A stretch of DNA of 64,000 nucleotides from an uncultured bacterium (lineage in GTDB: Bacteria > Patescibacteriota > Minisyncoccia > UBA6257 > 2-01-FULL-56-20), in the NCBI GenBank assembly GCA_963707865.1, contig OY970175.1, positions 630,028-694,027 of the forward strand. The letters run 5' to 3'. The notes beneath the pieces were generated by a model. The model was not told the DNA's origin and made no database searches. It worked only from the letters and a program-made list of their open reading frames with translations. This document shows, piece after piece, positions 1 through 8,494 of the stretch (position 1 is the first letter of the stretch; every line of letters begins with the position of its first letter). The position numbers and the translations under genes are program-made.

Positions 1-93
1 TTCGCGAGATCGGGAAGATGCTCGGCGGTTGGATGAAATTCGTACGAAACGGCCCTTACGCGAAAGCGGAATAATTTGAAAGAGCATACAGTA

Positions 94-212
94 ACAACGA
101 TCGCGGGACGCGCACCCAGCTTGTCATTCGAATTCCCGGACTCATTCCAGTTCACATTGACCTGCCGATTCCTCGGATTCCAGTTCGCGTGAACCACGCC
201 TTGCGGCACGCG
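94..212 (-). repeat. DGR template-repeat (TR)-like orphan copy of the 3' segment of the two downstream paralogs. In the coding frame it is Asn/AAY-rich (…VHANWNPRNRQVNVNWNESGNSNDKLGARPA…) and it has no gene body.
   Basis: 119-nt homology to 580..699 and 1724..1842. Column-by-column comparison with VR2 (16 mismatches) shows every mismatch at a TR coding-strand adenine; the same pattern holds against VR1. The segment ends in a GC-rich IMH-like stretch, GCTGGGTGCGCGTCCCGCG. Confidence 0.65.
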
Positions 213-570
213 CCCCGTGTTCCTTGATCTCGTCGTATCACACAGAGCCGCCCACGGGCAACCCCTGGCCGCTATTCTCACAAGGAACGTCGTTGTCGTT
301 AGGTTCGACCCGGCACGTTTAGCTTTTGAGGGCTAAGCCGTATGTACATTAGCCGGGAACGAGGCGAACCAACCCGACCCCCTGCGCTCATGCGCAGAAA
401 GCACGGTGGCTTCGGGAGCCCCGCCCTTTGGGTGCTAGAAAATTGGATAGCGCCAAAAGGGCGAAGTTGCCGATTTATTCTAAATTATTTTTTCATAGCT
501 TTGTTGTGTTAGAAAAATCGCGCGGAATTCAAAGAAAAAATAATATAAAGAAAAGATTGAATATCAAACT

Positions 571-1656
571 TCAATTTCGACAACGACCGCGGGACGCGCA
601 CCCAGCCTGCCACGCGAACCCCCGGACCCACCCCAGCGCACACTGACCCGCCGATCGCCCCGGATCCCAGACCGCGTGAACCACGCCCTGCGGCACGCGG
701 GAATCGAGGAGCCAAGTCCACTTGGATTTTTTGGCATCGTCGTCATAGGCATCGAAGCTATGGTCCTTTCTCGCTTCAAGCTCTTTCCGTTGCAACATCA
801 AATATTCTTCGAGTGTAAGACCGTTCCATTTTTTCTGCGCGAAAAGCTTGTCCAAATCTTCCGGCTTTTTCCCCATCGTCTCTTCGGGCAGTGGCCCCGA
901 CTGGTACAGCAGGAGATATGCTTTCCTTGTGGGCCGATTTCGGGACGTCGCGTTTTTCGTCACGTCGGGTTCGTACATGTAGTGCGCTTGGCTGTATTGC
1001 TCGGTATCTTGCAGACCCGGAAGCTGTTTATCGGCGAGTTCGGTAAGCAGCTTATTAACGCCGCCTTTCTGAAGGTCGGTTGAGGGCAAAAGCATCGCAC
1101 TATCGAACCCTTCGCGGAGGGCTTCGCGGAGCCGCGCTTCGGATTGCGGGGACAGTCGTACTTCTTTCGGCAATTCTCTCAAGAAATCTTTGAGGTCGTG
1201 GTTGGTATAAAATCCGACCGATTCTTTAAGTACGGCTTCGGTATCCAGTTTTATTTCCCGCTTCCCGTCTTTTGTTTTTTCCACATAAACCCGCCGCGAG
1301 CGTTCATAGCTCCTTTCAAACTCGCGCTGCGAGATGGTAATCCCTTCGCCATCTCCGGTTTCGAGAACGACGTTCCCATCCCTTGTTCTCCCCTTGAACA
1401 CCCACGGCTGCTTCGTCCGGTCGCCGCTCTTTATAAATTGGCTGTCCGGAGTAGCGTCACCCACCGCTTCTGGAAGGTATACGACCTCCTTGCCGTCGGC
1501 ATCAAAAATCCTTGCTTCCACGGGCTTCGGTACTTCGCGAAGCATTTCGGCCCGCCTCGGCACACGCGGACTCAATGCCCCGATCTCGGATGGGGTGAGA
1601 ATAGGGCTTTCGTTTTGCTCAGCCTGCCCCTCGAAGTTTTCTGGTGATTTTTTCAT
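571..1656 (-). CDS. Putative DGR target protein, paralog 1 (hypothetical). VR1 at the C-terminus carries a 1-nt insertion that shifts the terminal frame, so this may be a pseudogene or an error.
   Basis: 361-aa ORF, about 65-70% identical to the neighbouring paralog. The C-terminal 120 nt form the variable repeat. The C-terminal tail reads …GCASRGRCRN* instead of …GARPAVVVEIEV*. Confidence 0.6.
   Translation of the reverse strand: MKKSPENFEGQAEQNESPILTPSEIGALSPRVPRRAEMLREVPKPVEARIFDADGKEVVYLPEAVGDATPDSQFIKSGDRTKQPWVFKGRTRDGNVVLETGDGEGITISQREFERSYERSRRVYVEKTKDGKREIKLDTEAVLKESVGFYTNHDLKDFLRELPKEVRLSPQSEARLREALREGFDSAMLLPSTDLQKGGVNKLLTELADKQLPGLQDTEQYSQAHYMYEPDVTKNATSRNRPTRKAYLLLYQSGPLPEETMGKKPEDLDKLFAQKKWNGLTLEEYLMLQRKELEARKDHSFDAYDDDAKKSKWTWLLDSRVPQGVVHAVWDPGRSAGQCALGWVRGFAWQAGCASRGRCRN
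580..699 (-). repeat. DGR variable repeat VR1 (3' end of paralog 1).
   Basis: It differs from the TR (94..212) almost only at TR adenines, plus a 1-nt insertion (cgatCGcccc vs cgattcccc). Confidence 0.6.
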
Positions 1657-1707
1657 GATCTATAAAAATTTTCGCGGAAGAAAAAATAATGAATTAAATA
1701 CAAAAGA

Positions 1708-2793
1708 TCAAACTTCAATTTCGACAACGACCGCGGGACGCGCACCCAGCTCGCCAAGCGAATCCCCGGACTCATCCCAGTGCACATGGACCCGCCGATT
1801 CCCCGGACGCCAGTACGCGCGAACCACGCCTCGCGGCACGCGGGAATCGAGGAGCCAAGTCCACTTGGATTTTTTGGCATCGTCGGAATAGGCATCGAAG
1901 CGATGATCTTTGCTTGCCTCTGCTTCTTTTCTTTGCGTCAATAGGTATTCTTGGAGCGTGAACCCATTCCATTTCTTTTGCGCAAATAATGGATCGAGTT
2001 GATCCGGCGACTTTCCTTTTGTCTCGTCAGGAATTGGGCCGGACTGATAGAGTAGGAGGTAAGCTTTTTGCTTTGGCCTGTTCCTCGTTTCCGCAGTTTT
2101 GGTGCCGCCCTCAAAGTACGGTGCCGTGTATTGCTCGTTCGCCGATAGGTTTGGGATCTCCTTGATAGCGGTTTCAGAGGCGATGGTTTCGATATTCGCG
2201 GATTGCACCTCAGTTTTTGGAAGAAGCATCGCTTTGTCGAATCCCTCGCGAAGGGCTTCGCGCAATCTCGCTTCCGATTGCGAAGACAGCCGGATTTCTC
2301 TTGGTAATTCTTTCAGAAAATCCTTAATATCGTGCGCGGCGTAAAACCCGACGGACTCTTTGAGTACTGCTTCCGTATCAAGACTCACTTCCTTGCCCTC
2401 TTTTGTCCGTTCCGAATAGATCCTCTGGCTTCGCTCATAACTTGCTTCGAGTTCCCGTAACGCGATTGTGATGCCCTCGCCGTCCTCGGTCTCGAGGACC
2501 ACTTTCCCGTCTTTGGTCCTGCCTTTTACAACAAATGGTCTCTTGGCGCGATCTCCCTTCTTGATAACCCGACTGTCCGGGGAAAAGGCCCCTGAGGACT
2601 CGGGGAGATATGCGATCTCATTACCGTCCTCATCGAGAATTTTTGCCTCGATTGGCCTCGGCGCTTCGCGAAGCATTTCCGATCTGCGTGGTACGCGCGG
2701 ACTTAAGGCCCCGATCTCGGAAGGGGTAAGAATGGCATTCTCACTTTCCATAACATCTGACGGCCGTTCCGGATTTTCGGGCGATCTTTTCAT
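1708..2793 (-). CDS. Putative DGR target protein, paralog 2 (hypothetical; intact VR2 at the C-terminus, which ends …LGARPAVVVEIEV).
   Basis: 361-aa ORF. The N- and C-terminal regions are conserved with paralog 1, with a divergent central segment. The C-terminal 119 nt are collinear with the TR. Confidence 0.65.
   Translation of the reverse strand: MKRSPENPERPSDVMESENAILTPSEIGALSPRVPRRSEMLREAPRPIEAKILDEDGNEIAYLPESSGAFSPDSRVIKKGDRAKRPFVVKGRTKDGKVVLETEDGEGITIALRELEASYERSQRIYSERTKEGKEVSLDTEAVLKESVGFYAAHDIKDFLKELPREIRLSSQSEARLREALREGFDKAMLLPKTEVQSANIETIASETAIKEIPNLSANEQYTAPYFEGGTKTAETRNRPKQKAYLLLYQSGPIPDETKGKSPDQLDPLFAQKKWNGFTLQEYLLTQRKEAEASKDHRFDAYSDDAKKSKWTWLLDSRVPRGVVRAYWRPGNRRVHVHWDESGDSLGELGARPAVVVEIEV
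1724..1842 (-). repeat. DGR variable repeat VR2 (3' end of paralog 2).
   Basis: 16 mismatches to the TR over 119 nt, all at TR coding-strand adenines and none elsewhere. Confidence 0.65.
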
Positions 2794-2800
2794 GGTGTTA

Positions 2801-4468
2801 TCACAATTGAAATTCTTCTTGAAACTTTTTTACAAGATTGCGATCCTCTTCAGGATAGATTTTTTGGGATCCCCACGCGGTGATTTTCTCCGCGAGGAAG
2901 TTTTTGAGAGTCTCGTTGGACCTCATGGCTGATTTTCGGTATTCCTGAAGCCAAGAAATGATGAGACCCGGATCAAGCACGGCATGACGAAGATAAGAAG
3001 CATCACGCAGGGTTGTAGTGAGTGCATTCTCTTCGCCTTTGTAGCTTTTCTGGATAGCCGCGACGAATTCGGCAAACCGCCAGAGCGTTCCTCCCGCTTT
3101 GGGATCGGTGTCAATCTCGGGATGCTTGCTATTGGTTCGCGCATCCACTACTTCTTTCCATTGCGGAGGCAACTCGTCCTTCGGTACGCGAATTCGATCG
3201 TTCTGGTCCATAAGCGCCGCGAGCATCATTTCATAAAGCTCGGGATCTTCCGGGGATTGCGGCGGATAATCTACCTCAAGCGAGCCGAGTTCCCGCGCCA
3301 CCTCGACCGGAAGCTCGGAGCGATCCGGATGTTTTTCCGAAGGAAGGTTGGCTGAGCCAATAAAACCGAATTCGGGAGCAAGTTTTTCTGAACTGCCTGC
3401 CCAAGCTGCAAAGCTGATTTCCTCTCCCGCGCGGCGGCCGGAAAGTTGCTTGATTAAAGAACGCAAGCCTTCCGGAGGGTAGCCGTTCATTTCGTCCATA
3501 TAGAATATTCCGCCAGCTCCGGCTTTCGCATCCCGCGAGGTCTTTTTCCCGGTCACCGCTTGACCGAGCGGCCCGTAGGTGACGAATGTTTCTCTGTCCT
3601 TATCTATACTTCGCAAACCTAAAAGCGGTCGGATGTCAGTTTTCGCTTCTTCGCCTACTTCATAAGGCGCACGTTCGGTAAGCCGTTGCGAAGCAGCACG
3701 AGCGAGACGAGTTTTTCCGGTTCCAGTTTCTCCATAAAGGAGGAGTGGCCGATTCTGATTCACGATCACAAGGTGCTCGAGAATTTTCTGGAATAATTTT
3801 TCTCTTGATGGAGTCCAAATAAAGCCGCCCTTCTTAAGCTGCTCCCGATATGTCTTCAAGCGTTCAAAAGAAAGCCGCGCTGAGAGTTCCGGATCTTCGC
3901 GCTCCATCCGTTGCATCGAGCCATCGGTTGCTTTCACGCGAGCCGCGAGATCGGCAAGCTCGAGCAGAGTAAGTTCATCGGATTCTTTTTCCCGATGGGA
4001 AAAAATATCTGAATAGAGTTCGAGACGACGCTCGTCCGCTCCGTCCCTCTGAGCTTTTTCCCGGAGATAATTCTCGTACGAAGGGGCAAGTTTTTCCTCT
4101 TCTGCAAATTCACGTTCCAAGGTTTTCTCAAAGATTCCACGCACGTTGGTATCTTTGAAGCGAGGGCGTATGGCGGTGCGGAGCGGAGCGAGTTTTGTGT
4201 CGACTGCAACCGTCGCTCGGATACGCCGGGCACGATCCGCTGGTGATTCCTGATCGTTCTTGGGCTCGGCTCTTTTATCTCGATATTCTTTGGCAAGCTC
4301 GTCTCTCTTGCGCTGATAGTCGCGCCAAAGCGCATAGAGCTCCTCAGATCCCTGTTCGGGAGAATTCCATGTCTCGGCAAAAGAAACGACGCCTTCTTTT
4401 TGCGGAGCCTTTTCCGAAGCTTGTTCCAGCTTATTCTCTATTTCCTCGAATTTGGGGCTCTCCTTCAT
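2801..4468 (-). CDS. AAA+ ATPase (AAA_5 / MoxR-McrB-like), with a charged coiled-coil N-terminal region.
   Basis: Walker A motif [12 protein letters not shown] and Walker B-like motif [10 protein letters not shown]. 555 aa, immediately upstream of and co-oriented with the two DGR-target paralogs. Confidence 0.6.
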
Positions 4469-4995: not shown

Positions 4996-6339
4996 TTGAT
5001 GACAAACCTAACCAAGGGGTCGGCAGGAGCGGCGACCTCAACCAATCAGCCGCTGCCAGTAAAGGTCGCCTACTGTCTGTATGCAAGAAAGAGTACAGAA
5101 TCAGAGGAAAAACAAATTCTTTCGATTGATAGCCAAATCACGGAGATGATCAGGATTGCCGAGCGAGACGGATTGGAGATCGCGGAGATCAGGAAGGAAT
5201 CCCACTCCGCGAAAGATGTCGGCCAACGCGAAGTGTTTAACTCGCTCCTCACAGACATTCGCGCGGGTAAATTCAACGGCATCCTCACGTGGGCACCGGA
5301 TCGCTTGAGCCGCAATGCGGGCGATCTCGGATCGCTCGTCGATCTCATGGATCAGAAGCAGCTCGTCGAGATACGAACCTTCTCGCAAAAGTTCACTAAC
5401 AATCCAAGCGAGAAATTCATGCTCATGATCCTGTGCTCGACGGCGAAACTCGAGAACGACAATAAATCGGAAAACGTGAGACGGGGCCTGCGGGCGCGGG
5501 TGGAAATGGGCCTCTGGCCAGGCATCGCGCCTACGGGATATCTGAACGAAAAACGGAAGGATAAGAAATGCGAACTCCTGGTAGATCCCGTGCGAGGTCC
5601 CATCATCCGTCAAATGTTTGAGAAGGTGGCGAATGAGCAATGGTCGGGACGCAGGCTCTATCTATGGCTCAAAAACGAGGTAAAGTTCAAGACGATCACC
5701 GGAAAACCCCTCTCGTTATCGAATATCTTCATCGTCCTCCAAAAAACCTTCTACTACGGAACGTTTGAATTCCCCGAAAAGTCGGGCAAATGGTACACCG
5801 GCGTCCATACGCCCCTCGTCACAAAAGAACTATTTGATCGAGCGCGGGAGCAGATGAAGCGGAGCGAGGTCAAAAACGACAAGGAATTCGCCTTCACAAA
5901 GCTCATCACGTGCGGCCTTTGCGGATCAGGAATCACTGCATCTGAAAAATGGAAATATCAAAAGAACGGCAATACCCATCGGTATGTGTACTATGGATGC
6001 ACGAAGAAGCGTGACGTAAATTGCCAATGCGGATATATCAAAGAAGAAGAAATTATCGACCAGATTCTCGCGATGTTCGACACGCTCGATATCAACGAGC
6101 TGGGTGTCAAGCAGAAATTCAAGGACGAAATCGCGCGGTACAACAAATTCAGGAGAGTCGCCTTGGGCAAGGGCCGAGAACAGAACGCCGAACCGGAAAT
6201 CTTCGATGCCAAGGTCTATGCGGTCTACGTCTTAACCGAAGGCACGATTATCGAAAAACGCGAGCTGTTATCAAACCTGAGGAGCCGCTTGAAATTCCAG
6301 AACAAGACGCTCGCCTTAATGCCGCAGGAAACGGCATAA
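4996..6339 (+). CDS. Large serine recombinase (resolvase/integrase family).
   Basis: N-terminal resolvase motif YARKSTESEEKQ…SIDSQ with a catalytic Ser, a recombinase domain, and a Cys-rich zinc ribbon (CGLCGS…YYGCTKK…CQCGY). Its 3' end faces the tRNA-Val 3' end. Confidence 0.85.
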   Translation: MMTNLTKGSAGAATSTNQPLPVKVAYCLYARKSTESEEKQILSIDSQITEMIRIAERDGLEIAEIRKESHSAKDVGQREVFNSLLTDIRAGKFNGILTWAPDRLSRNAGDLGSLVDLMDQKQLVEIRTFSQKFTNNPSEKFMLMILCSTAKLENDNKSENVRRGLRARVEMGLWPGIAPTGYLNEKRKDKKCELLVDPVRGPIIRQMFEKVANEQWSGRRLYLWLKNEVKFKTITGKPLSLSNIFIVLQKTFYYGTFEFPEKSGKWYTGVHTPLVTKELFDRAREQMKRSEVKNDKEFAFTKLITCGLCGSGITASEKWKYQKNGNTHRYVYYGCTKKRDVNCQCGYIKEEEIIDQILAMFDTLDINELGVKQKFKDEIARYNKFRRVALGKGREQNAEPEIFDAKVYAVYVLTEGTIIEKRELLSNLRSRLKFQNKTLALMPQETA

Positions 6340-6392: not shown

Positions 6393-6533
6393 ATACAGCA
6401 TGATCGTGCAACGACTCAAGGGATCTGACTCGCCCGCGAACGGTAAAGAGGTTTCAGTGTACTAGAGGGTCATCCCTCAAGGACGCGCTGGAACCTCAGG
6501 AATCACGGTCTCAAAACACCTATCACTGGACTG

Positions 6534-6605
6534 TGCGTCCTGGAGGGATCGGACCTCCGGCCTCTACAGTGTCATTGTAGCGCTCTACCACTGAGCTAAG
6601 GACGC
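6534..6605 (-). tRNA. tRNA-Val (anticodon GAC).
   Basis: Manual cloverleaf: acceptor GCGTCCT/AGGACGC, D-arm GCTC-AGTGGTA-GAGC, anticodon loop ATGACAC, T-arm GGAGG-TCCGATC-CCTCC. CCA is not encoded. Confidence 0.65.
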
Positions 6606-7459: not shown

Positions 7460-8494
7460 ATGGATGAGGAAGCATACTACTATTATAATGCGGTCGCCGT
7501 GGGCACGGGCGGCGATTATCGGAAAATCGCGCAGTTAAAAAAGAAATATGGCGACTGGAAACGCGCGCACGAAGCACTCGAGCATTTCGGCATCCCTCCG
7601 CCCGATGCCGAGACGGAATGGAAAAACCTTGCGCGCGCGGGCGTCGCCCTCATACTTTTTGAACATGAAGAATATCCTGCACCGCTCCGGGAAATAAATG
7701 ATCATCCCTTCGGCATTTACCTGCGCGGCGCACTCCCGCCGCAGAACGTGCCGCTTTTCGCGATTGTGGGCACCCGGCGTGCCACGCCTGAAGGAAAAAA
7801 CATCGCCCGGTGTTTCGCGCGGGAGCTCACGCAATGCGGGTTCGGCATCGTAAGCGGCCTCGCGTTCGGTATCGATGCCGCAGCACACGAAGGATGTCTT
7901 GATGCCCGGGGTGTGACGATCGCGGTGCTTGCCGGAGGGTTGCATGCCGTGTATCCCCGAGAGCATGCGCGCCTTGCGGAAAAAATCCTTCAAAGCGGCG
8001 GCGTACTCGTCTCCGAATACCCGCTCGGCGCGCCTCCGTACGCAGACCGCTTTCTGGAACGGAACAGGATTGTGAGCGGCCTTTCGCGCGGCGTTTTGAT
8101 CGTAGAAGCGCCACAGGGATCGGGCGCACTCGTGACCGCACACCTCGCTCTTGAACAAAATCGGGACGTATTCGTCGTACCCGGTTCCATCGTCCATCCG
8201 AACTTCGCGGGCTCCCACGCACTCATCCGTCAAGGGGCAACGCTCACGACCACTCCCCACGAAATCATGGAAAGCTATGGCATCTCTCCCGCGGAGAAGA
8301 TTGCCGTGCAAGAAAAAACGGCGTCACTCGAAGAAAGACTGATTTTAAAGGCCTTGCGGGAAGCTTCCGTACCTCTTGCGGTTGACAAAATCACGGCAAT
8401 CACTAAGCTGGAACCCCAAATCGCAAACCGGACGCTTTCGTTCCTTTTGCTAAAAAATCTCATCAAAGAACGGAGTGAAGGGTATACAATATAA
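7460..8494 (+). CDS. dprA: DNA processing protein DprA (Smf).
   Basis: Rossmann-like DprA core (AIVGTRRATPEG…GIVSGLAFGIDAAAH…VVPG) and a C-terminal winged-helix domain. Confidence 0.85.
   Translation: MDEEAYYYYNAVAVGTGGDYRKIAQLKKKYGDWKRAHEALEHFGIPPPDAETEWKNLARAGVALILFEHEEYPAPLREINDHPFGIYLRGALPPQNVPLFAIVGTRRATPEGKNIARCFARELTQCGFGIVSGLAFGIDAAAHEGCLDARGVTIAVLAGGLHAVYPREHARLAEKILQSGGVLVSEYPLGAPPYADRFLERNRIVSGLSRGVLIVEAPQGSGALVTAHLALEQNRDVFVVPGSIVHPNFAGSHALIRQGATLTTTPHEIMESYGISPAEKIAVQEKTASLEERLILKALREASVPLAVDKITAITKLEPQIANRTLSFLLLKNLIKERSEGYTI

Follow-up and report, generated by a model that had tools for sequence, protein, structure and literature searches.

Adenine-restricted repeats, tandem lectin-fold targets and a covarying leader in a probable Patescibacteria diversity-generating retroelement

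The window, a 64,000-nt stretch of DNA from a Patescibacteria genome, carries close to its first coordinate two tandem genes for 361-aa paralogues and, beside them, a 119-nt segment that recurs at the 3′ end of each gene. The features of this locus are as follows.

3..74, plus strand: 3′ end of avd, its last 23 codons REIGKMLGGWMKFVRNGPYAKAE with the stop at 72-74; convergent on the template repeat, remainder off-window
94..212, minus strand: template repeat (TR) of 119 nt; 26 of its bases are adenines, and it has 8 AAY codons
213..432, minus strand: conserved structured leader, ~220 nt 5′ of the TR, with covariation
217..210, minus strand: leader segment CGGGGCGC, complementary to GCGUCCCG inside the TR (111..104)
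288..219, minus strand: leader stem-loop H2, covariance model R1
296..290, minus strand: leader ACAACGA, able to pair with the final 7 nt of the TR (100..94)
Between ACAACGA and H1, minus strand: leader variable region
421..362, minus strand: leader hairpin H1, compensatory changes in 5/13 pairs
540..567, minus strand: sigma-70-like promoter match TTGATA-16-TATTAT, just past the target-1 stop; a consensus match only
571..1656, minus strand: target gene 1, 361 aa, with VR1 at 580..699
1708..2793, minus strand: target gene 2, 361 aa, intact, with VR2 at 1724..1842
2801..4468, minus strand: AAA_5 (MoxR/dynein-type) ATPase, Pfam AAA_5 E = 4e-12

The 119-nt segment is present in three direct copies (94..212, 580..699, and 1724..1842), at the same coordinates as an earlier note on this DNA had placed them. 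The last two form the 3′ ends of the tandem paralogues, where the VRs make up the last ~40 codons of both 361-aa ORFs. The orphan copy, the TR, reads RVPQGVVHANWNPRNRQVNVNWNESGNSNDKLGARPAIVV in the coding frame and is AAY-rich, as had been claimed. After alignment, all 16 mismatches between the TR and VR2 lie at TR adenines (10 A>G, 4 A>C, and 2 A>T), in agreement with the earlier count; with 26 adenines in 119 nt, the hypergeometric p for this restriction is 2e-13. The comparison with VR1 gives 20/20 substitutions at TR adenines (17 A>G, 2 A>C, and 1 A>T; p = 9e-18). The same pattern had been reported for VR1, which is correct for the substitutions and overlooked a 1-nt insertion in that copy. 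Mismatches away from adenines on proper alignment, which the earlier note had named as evidence against its reading, were not seen among the 36 substitutions (36/36 at TR adenines), and both VRs are free of mismatches across the 93 non-A TR positions. Substitutions between VR1 and VR2 are likewise confined to TR-A positions, with the non-A positions fully homogenised. The 200 nt directly 5′ of the VRs are 73.5% identical between the paralogues and the gene bodies 66% (range 66–74% near the VRs). Zero non-A mismatches despite such diverged flanking coding DNA argue for recent or ongoing homing.

The adenine asymmetry recurs in 11 related loci besides the window. Across 15 TR/VR pairs from 12 loci, the window's two pairs included, 223/229 mismatches are at a TR A. 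Variable columns in an alignment of the 36-protein family match the A-containing TR codons, and the window TR is 96.6% identical to that of locus L007. Among the 36 changes in the window, 27 are A>G, an excess for which selection, and not the mutagenesis itself, may be responsible.

All three copies share the 3′ end CTGGGTGCGCGTCCCGCG-(A/G)-TCGTTGT. At the 3′ end of the TR (117..94), a GC-rich IMH*-like stretch is followed by ATCGTTGT. The putative IMH/IMH* region comprises an 18-nt GC-rich block and (A/G)TCGTTGT, common to the TR and the VRs, with A at position 101 in the TR and G in both VRs. Since G occupies this position in 6/6 VRs of the window, L002, and L007, the A>G change there is, on sequence comparison, probably an IMH/IMH* difference rather than a product of mutagenesis. 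The shared GC-rich IMH-like stretch is as originally described; the hairpin-prone tail attributed to it is not, as DNA folding of the sequence after the three repeats was no better than that of shuffles (z = +0.3, +1.8, and +0.8) and gave no hairpin or cruciform signal.

Pfam and NCBIfam profiles found no family in the targets. In an AF2 model of the target (pLDDT 82.7), the C-terminal domain has a C-type-lectin/FGE-like fold and matches the known DGR variable proteins TvpA (2y3c), Mtd (1yu0), and TaqVP (5vf4), as well as FGE/SUMF2 (1y4j). Sequence identity to these four is just 9–13%, and the target, unlike FGE, has no Pfam FGE-sulfatase match. The N-terminal ~250 residues, which form a disordered head, small β-barrels, and a helical region, gave no significant structural match. 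The inserted base in VR1 (window 656/657), absent from the TR and VR2, puts the last 28 target-1 codons out of frame, and its removal restores a C-terminus ending in LGARPAVVVEIEV and a stop. As the sequence reads, target 1 at present has a frameshift within its VR and target 2 is intact; target 1 alone among the 36 family members has an aberrant C-terminus. The frameshift could be a sign of decay or an assembly error. The original reading frame is still intact past the insertion, so that the frameshift is either very recent or an assembly error.

The earlier note had reported neither an RT nor an Avd in the window. No RT homologue was found within the window (best tblastn E = 2.1), in keeping with that statement. 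Avd, by contrast, had been missed: the Avd of locus L002 matches the window at 3..71 (tblastn, E = 1.9e-7), and the avd fragment there is an open frame that agrees at 22/23 aa with the C-terminal end of the complete Avd of a close relative, L007. The L002 Avd itself matches PF22296 bAvd, and scores E = 3e-19 and 69 bits against NF033474 DivGenRetAVD, whose cut-off is 80. A minus-strand ORF from about 85-87 (MLFQIIPL...), open to the window edge and previously taken as a sign of the RT, was rejected as an RT start; it runs antisense to the final avd codons.

Seven distinct syntenic Patescibacteria loci (L002, L005, L007, L009, L010, L011, and L014) show a common gene order of AAA_5 ATPase, target(s), leader and TR, avd (opposite strand), RT, and transglutaminase/VWA protein, with L005 lacking a TR in the stretch examined. 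The order target(s)-TR-avd(inverted)-RT is complete in the other six; the window shows the targets, the TR, and the convergent avd end. Its AAA_5 ATPase gene lies 8 nt upstream of target 2 and is the first of the cassette, a position kept in 7/7 syntenic loci. Immediately past the inverted avd, each of the seven relatives has a gene for a DGR-type RT, an RVT_1 protein carrying LGNLT(S/P)Q and YNDD, located 0.36–0.42 kb past the TR in the six loci retaining one, and their downstream neighbour is a Transglut_core/VWA protein. In 38 further CPR-clade loci the TR lies about 370–500 nt upstream of the RT. One relative deserves separate mention for rearrangements. In L005/L008 the TR is apparently lost and the VR of the second target is fused directly to the TR-side flank beside avd, and in L005 the tandem paralogues share 99% identical 300-nt blocks, i.e., gene conversion occurs.

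From this conserved synteny we infer that the RT is present in the window's genome. In look-ups aimed past coordinate 1, the exact proteins of target 2 and of the recombinase gave no match, the ATPase gave only a 2.6-kb Logan contig, and the DNA pattern of the TR 3′ end had no match in genome_contigs. Because an oppositely oriented avd separates TR and RT, the RT is expected to start ~0.4 kb past coordinate 1 and not at the edge, a distance well within the 3-kb limit that the earlier note had set for finding it. By its gene order, the window cassette is of B3 architecture, with the RT part predicted for this genome.

The leader directly 5′ of the TR is distinguished by its covariation. Across the 12 distinct sequences of model R1, H2 has compensatory changes in 11/22 pairs, a value as high being reached in 0/500 shuffles; it is capped by a UGCG tetraloop in most relatives and by CGUG in the window and L007. 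The long-range leader–TR helices contribute one covarying flanking pair. For the leader segment GG-UUCG-CC, a UNCG hairpin of 2 bp comparable to the stop element of BPP-1 was considered; this reading was abandoned because RNAalifold pairs the segment with an upstream GGCU...AGCCA and compensatory changes are present. On the other side, for the 150 nt that follow the TR, compared across 11 loci, the consensus structure reached just −0.8 kcal/mol. Rfam returned only tRNAs at gathering thresholds, and a search of 1..700 at E <= 10 gave noise only. Sigma-70-like sites numbered 2 against 0.9 expected; as a weak sequence candidate, the match at 540..567 could possibly mark the start site of a leader–TR transcript.

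Region 213..432 might also be an independent small RNA or a 3′-UTR regulatory element of the target operon, outside the DGR template RNA. Its position directly after the target-1 stop codon would suit such an element, as would the folding of the single leader sequence, which was no better than that of shuffles (z = −0.5). However, model R1 finds the leader solely beside TRs of the window's RT subclade, G–U pairs assign its structure to the TR sense strand, and its segments are complementary to both the 3′ end and the GC-rich region of the TR. Moreover, a subfamily unrelated in sequence has the same layout, in which a TR-tail complement is followed by stem-loops and then by the TR, the pairing being TCGAGCAcUCC:GGAcUGCUCGA there and ACAACGA:UCGUUGU in the window. 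We therefore regard a separate RNA as improbable. Model R1 did not detect the leader in more distant loci, where the RT is <=48% identical; the generality of the leader is judged from a positional-complementarity test and the alignment of the second subfamily.

Taken together, we read the window as the target-proximal half of a chromosomal CPR/Patescibacteria DGR of B3 architecture, in which RT and Avd would carry out homing from the TR, and assign this reading a probability of about 0.93. The DGR and its A-to-N footprint, as proposed in the earlier note, are upheld by the statistics, the 11 related loci, the lectin fold, and the bAvd/RT synteny of the relatives. It is quite improbable that the element is a relic, with TR and VRs left from past activity, the RT lost, damaged, or silent, and target 1 decaying. 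The frameshifting 1-nt insertion in VR1 would fit a relic, yet the intact frame past it marks the frameshift as very recent or as an assembly error. The RT was not observed in a window that covers the targets, the TR, and the avd end, and one relative (L005/L008) has apparently lost its TR; against these stand an avd fragment that is open and 22/23 identical to a relative's, and the absence of any non-A TR/VR difference over 119 nt where adjoining paralogue coding DNA is 26–34% diverged. Ordinary paralogue divergence, with the orphan copy as a pseudogene fragment subject to gene conversion and the adenine pattern coincidental or compositional, could draw on the tandem paralogues and the converted blocks of L005, but is effectively refuted by the adenine-only mismatches (p = 2e-13 for VR2 and 9e-18 for VR1) and their repetition in 11 other loci, and has no place for the avd fragment or the conserved RT synteny.

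In the DGR that we favour, a minus-strand RNA would be transcribed that consists of the structured leader (~220 nt) followed by the 119-nt TR. The off-window RT, together with Avd, would reverse-transcribe this leader–TR RNA with misincorporation opposite template adenines, and in either tandem paralogue the cDNA would replace the 3′-terminal homologous VR. The predicted outcome is the rewriting of ~14 codons on the ligand-binding face of the C-type-lectin-fold domain. Leader ACAACGA, through its pairing with the TR 3′ end, may act like the downstream Sp primer strand of phage BPP-1. We infer that the DGR may be active at present and that the leader has a putative role in it.

Thousands of DGRs have been catalogued, and CPR genomes are enriched in them; Paul et al., writing in Nat Microbiol in 2017, are reportedly a source for CPR/Patescibacteria DGRs. 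The B3 architecture, TR-(avd)-RT, is typical of CPR DGRs (Wu et al. 2018 NAR, PMC5758913), and a CPR-restricted cellular DGR clade 2 has targets without recognisable domains (Roux et al. 2021, PMC8144416). The window DGR agrees with these CPR B3 elements (PMC5758913, PMC8144416) in gene order and strands, in being cellular and in a Patescibacteria genome, and in its avd, its AAY-rich TR, and a target with no Pfam domain and an extreme C-terminal VR. No essential difference separates it from them; the window subfamily adds two tandem targets and a setting with an AAA_5 ATPase on one side and a transglutaminase/VWA protein on the other. Given the numbers catalogued, the CPR enrichment, and a gene order that is standard for CPR DGRs, the window DGR is ordinary as such.

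The leader is another matter, as no description of a structured leader upstream of the TR was found in the DGR literature examined. To our knowledge, the mechanism of DGR RNA is known solely from a single phage, whose functional RNA follows the TR. The BPP-1 order is mtd-avd-TR-brt (Handa et al. 2018, PMC6182149; Handa et al. bioRxiv 10.1101/2023.10.23.563531), and its Sp RNA downstream of the TR holds an Avd-binding stem-loop, a primer strand, a stop duplex, and a bRT-binding stem (PMC6182149; 10.1101/2023.10.23.563531). The window DGR resembles that of BPP-1 in A-specific homing from the TR to the C-terminal VR of a CLec-fold protein, in its Avd cofactor, and in the GC-rich IMH-like 3′ end. 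Both also have an RNA stretch complementary to the 3′ end of the TR, and a stem-loop that bears a UNCG-type tetraloop in most of the window family. Unlike the phage element, it is cellular, its avd is inverted between TR and RT, and the covarying structure of its family lies upstream of the TR, whereas the downstream antisense-avd region has no consensus structure. In the msr-msd RNA of retrons, the templated region is preceded by a structured non-coding part that supplies the 2′-OH primer. The proposed upstream primer strand is similar in topology; however, there is no sequence or Rfam similarity to a retron, and the RT clade, the Avd, and homing into a gene are DGR traits. We tentatively propose, at rather less than even odds, that the cis-acting DGR RNA of B3 CPR DGRs is permuted relative to BPP-1. 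Protein-binding and priming elements would then sit in a ~200–300 nt leader 5′ of the TR, and the TR-tail complement would be a cis-primer, so that cDNA is primed from upstream RNA and not from a downstream Sp.

At this locus, two "hypothetical" paralogues can now be annotated, on the basis of the structure model, as putative hypervariable lectin-fold binding proteins, tied to a conserved AAA_5 / transglutaminase-VWA cassette. Target 1 would be switched off by the frameshift within its VR, and repair by the next homing event could follow. The covarying leader upstream of the TR is the part that deserves specialist attention. If the proposed permutation is true, the leader would be an undescribed RNA family, and these elements would offer a compact and relatively accessible model of the way DGR RNA programs reverse transcription; a clade whose RNA layout is opposite to that of BPP-1 would help to tell which RNA features are indispensable.

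A repeat search recovered one 119-nt repeat family in three copies (94-212, 580-698, and 1724-1842), and the reading frames agree with the earlier note that two of them form the 3′ ends of tandem target genes.

571..1656, minus strand: target 1 open reading frame, 361 aa, with the second repeat copy (variable repeat VR1) at its 3′ end
1708..2793, minus strand: target 2 open reading frame, 361 aa, with the third repeat copy (VR2) at its 3′ end

When the copies were aligned on the coding (minus) strand, the orphan copy, taken as the template repeat (TR), differed from VR2 by 16 substitutions and from VR1 by 20. All 36 (27 A>G, 6 A>C, and 3 A>T) fall at adenines of the orphan copy, which make up 26 of its 119 nt (hypergeometric p = 2e-13 for VR2 and 9e-18 for VR1); the adenine confinement described earlier from sequence alone is thus borne out for both VRs. 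The 93 non-A positions of TR are perfectly identical in the VRs, which is evidence of directional copying from TR because the gene bodies are far more diverged (66% identity upstream of the VRs and 73.5% over the 200 nt adjoining them). Translated in frame, TR reads RVPQGVVHANWNPRNRQVNVNWNESGNSNDKLGARPAIVV. Among 15 TR/VR pairs from 12 loci, a tally that counts the window's own two pairs, 223 of 229 mismatches lie at TR adenines, and the variable C-terminal columns of a 36-protein alignment coincide with A-containing TR codons. These data support the interpretation of the TR/VR pattern as a diversity-generating retroelement (DGR). The supposedly hairpin-prone tails after the repeats folded no better than shuffled sequence.

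At window position 101, TR carries A and all six VRs of the window and of the syntenic loci L002 and L007 carry G; the equivalent position is G in the TRs of the other loci too. This is more likely a difference between IMH and IMH*, the conserved 3′ ends of VR and TR, than a product of adenine mutagenesis.

VR1 is not the plain 119-nt-type copy it had been taken for. Alignment shows a length of 120 nt, with one base at window 656/657 that TR and VR2 lack. The insertion, within the segment 651..663, adjoins mutated adenines and throws target 1 out of frame over its final 28 codons, giving a C-terminus of ...WDPGRSAGQCALGWVRGFAWQAGCASRGRCRN and a stop; in silico deletion of the base brings back ...LGARPAVVVEIEV and a stop, the family consensus. 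The original frame is still open downstream of the insertion. The extra base could be an indel made by the reverse transcriptase (RT), a transient "off" state repairable at the next homing event, or an assembly error.

An AlphaFold2 model of the target, built from the family alignment (mean pLDDT 82.7; residues 1-45 disordered), has structural matches that include the Legionella Lcl C-terminal domain and many animal C-type lectin domains. VR therefore decorates a CLec fold, the arrangement typical of canonical DGRs; a Foldseek search returned no significant match for the rest of the protein. All 40 target homologues belong to metagenomes or Patescibacteria MAGs; a Pfam domain occurs in none of them.

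Related loci were collected from contigs carrying target relatives and by a scan of GTDB genomes. Seven distinct loci share a common order: an AAA_5 ATPase, one or two targets, TR, bAvd on the reverse strand, an RVT_1 reverse transcriptase (motifs LGNLTSQ and YNDD), and, as the last gene, a transglutaminase-core/VWA protein of ~875 aa. One of the seven, L005 (its contig is also that of L008), lacks a TR in the 17-kb stretch examined. Within L005 5877..8600, the second target's VR (8083..8201) continues directly into the TR-side flank abutting avd, the called reading frame extends to 8292, and a 300-nt block of 99% identity is common to both targets; the arrangement is suggestive of recombination between VR and TR together with gene conversion. 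L010 (CAZIHD010000001.1) belongs to a MAG labelled "uncultured Gammaproteobacteria" and has the same Patescibacteria-type cassette and leader, the latter identical to that of L026; an error in binning or taxonomy may explain the label.

The DGR always lies between the MoxR-like AAA_5 ATPase and the ~875-aa transglutaminase-core/VWA protein (L002 8323..16699, with equivalents in L005, L009, L010, L011, and L014). This flanking recalls the well-known MoxR-VWA pairing, a hint that the variable proteins work together with the AAA_5 and VWA pair. In the window, the AAA_5 gene and the two features immediately past it are as follows.

2801..4468: AAA_5 ATPase, cassette gene adjoining target 2
4996..6339, plus strand: large serine recombinase (Resolvase, Recombinase, and Zn_ribbon_recom), beside the AAA_5/DGR cassette
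6533..6605, minus strand: tRNA-Val, adjoining the serine recombinase

The end of the AAA_5 gene lies 8 nt upstream of target 2, consistent with an operon-like unit. The cassette may sit on an integrative element, and it may move, since its chromosomal neighbours differ between L002 and L005.

No RT homologue was found in the 64-kb window (best E = 2.1). The earlier note had placed the RT beyond coordinate 1, with the open minus-strand frame at the edge as its start. The direction stands; the frame (ATG near 85-87) was rejected as the antisense of the avd 3′ end. Plus-strand frame 3 at window 3..74 encodes REIGKMLGGWMKFVRNGPYAKAE and a stop, a peptide that matches bAvd C-termini (22/23 identical in L007, 65% in L002; tblastn E = 1.9e-7); the L002 protein itself matches Pfam bAvd and NCBIfam DivGenRetAVD (the latter at E = 3e-19). 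The window therefore starts within avd, which converges on TR from the opposite strand. As avd has ~125 codons in related loci and the RT start codon lies ~10-25 nt past that of avd, the RT is expected to start ~0.4 kb beyond coordinate 1.

The 358 nt from the target-1 stop codon to TR are non-coding and 90% identical to L007. An alignment of 12 distinct loci, with RT identity down to about 51%, resolves a structured leader.

213..432, minus strand: conserved covarying RNA leader, 5′ of TR
421..362, minus strand: 5′ hairpin H1, GGCU...ARCCAC pairing with UGGUUCGCC, compensatory changes in 5/13 pairs
between H1 and ACAACGA, minus strand: variable stretch in the leader alignment
296..290, minus strand: ACAACGA, invariant in the leader alignment
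288..219, minus strand: stem-loop H2, ~70 nt
217..210, minus strand: CGGGGCGC, abutting TR

The H2 apex is a C(UGCG)G tetraloop in most loci and C(CGUG)G in the window and L007. In the ACAACGA-H2 alignment, 94% of cells are paired and 11 of 22 pairs show double-sided changes; none of 500 shuffles scored as high, and slid controls drop to 38-54% paired. The corresponding covariance model matches solely beside TRs of this subclade, and the leader has no Rfam family. RNAalifold predicts two long-range helices between leader and TR. The first joins ACAACGA to the last 7 nt of TR (UCGUUGU, 100..94); its flanking pair covaries (GU 3, UA 3, GC 2, and CG 1), and in locus L013 an A-U pair is replaced by G-C. 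The second joins CGGGGCG to CGUCCCG within the GC-rich end of TR. For the 150 nt of antisense avd downstream of TR, the consensus fold scores -0.8 kcal/mol, essentially no structure at all.

Another 38 distinct loci of the Patescibacteria (CPR) RT clade place TR about 370-500 nt ahead of RT, with a spacer of roughly 270-560 nt between VR and TR. In 11 of the 38, a segment located 80-150 nt upstream of TR is complementary to the TR tail over 7 nt or more; the counts are 3, 6, and 3 for the other three upstream windows and 0 for the downstream window. These complements span about eight sequence types. One distant subfamily has the leader motif AUCGAGCACUCC opposite the TR tail GGGAcUGCUCGA, followed by its own covarying hairpin (7/13 pairs compensatory).

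The element fits architecture B3, defined as TR-(avd)-RT (Wu et al. 2018, PMC5758913). It also fits a clade of cellular DGRs that is confined to Patescibacteria and whose targets mostly have no recognisable domain (Roux et al. 2021, PMC8144416). It is a typical CPR DGR, a new member of an already known kind, and the upstream structured leader may be its one new feature. Phage BPP-1 has three such elements in Sp, downstream of TR: the primer strand, the UNCG stem-loop that binds Avd, and the stem that binds bRT (Handa et al., bioRxiv 10.1101/2023.10.23.563531). The survey of other DGRs in that study was limited to 40 nt on the upstream side and 100 nt on the downstream side of TR. The covarying structure of the window's element, in contrast, lies upstream of TR, and we infer that B3 elements would bear the primer-strand, Avd-binding, and RT-binding functions on that side.
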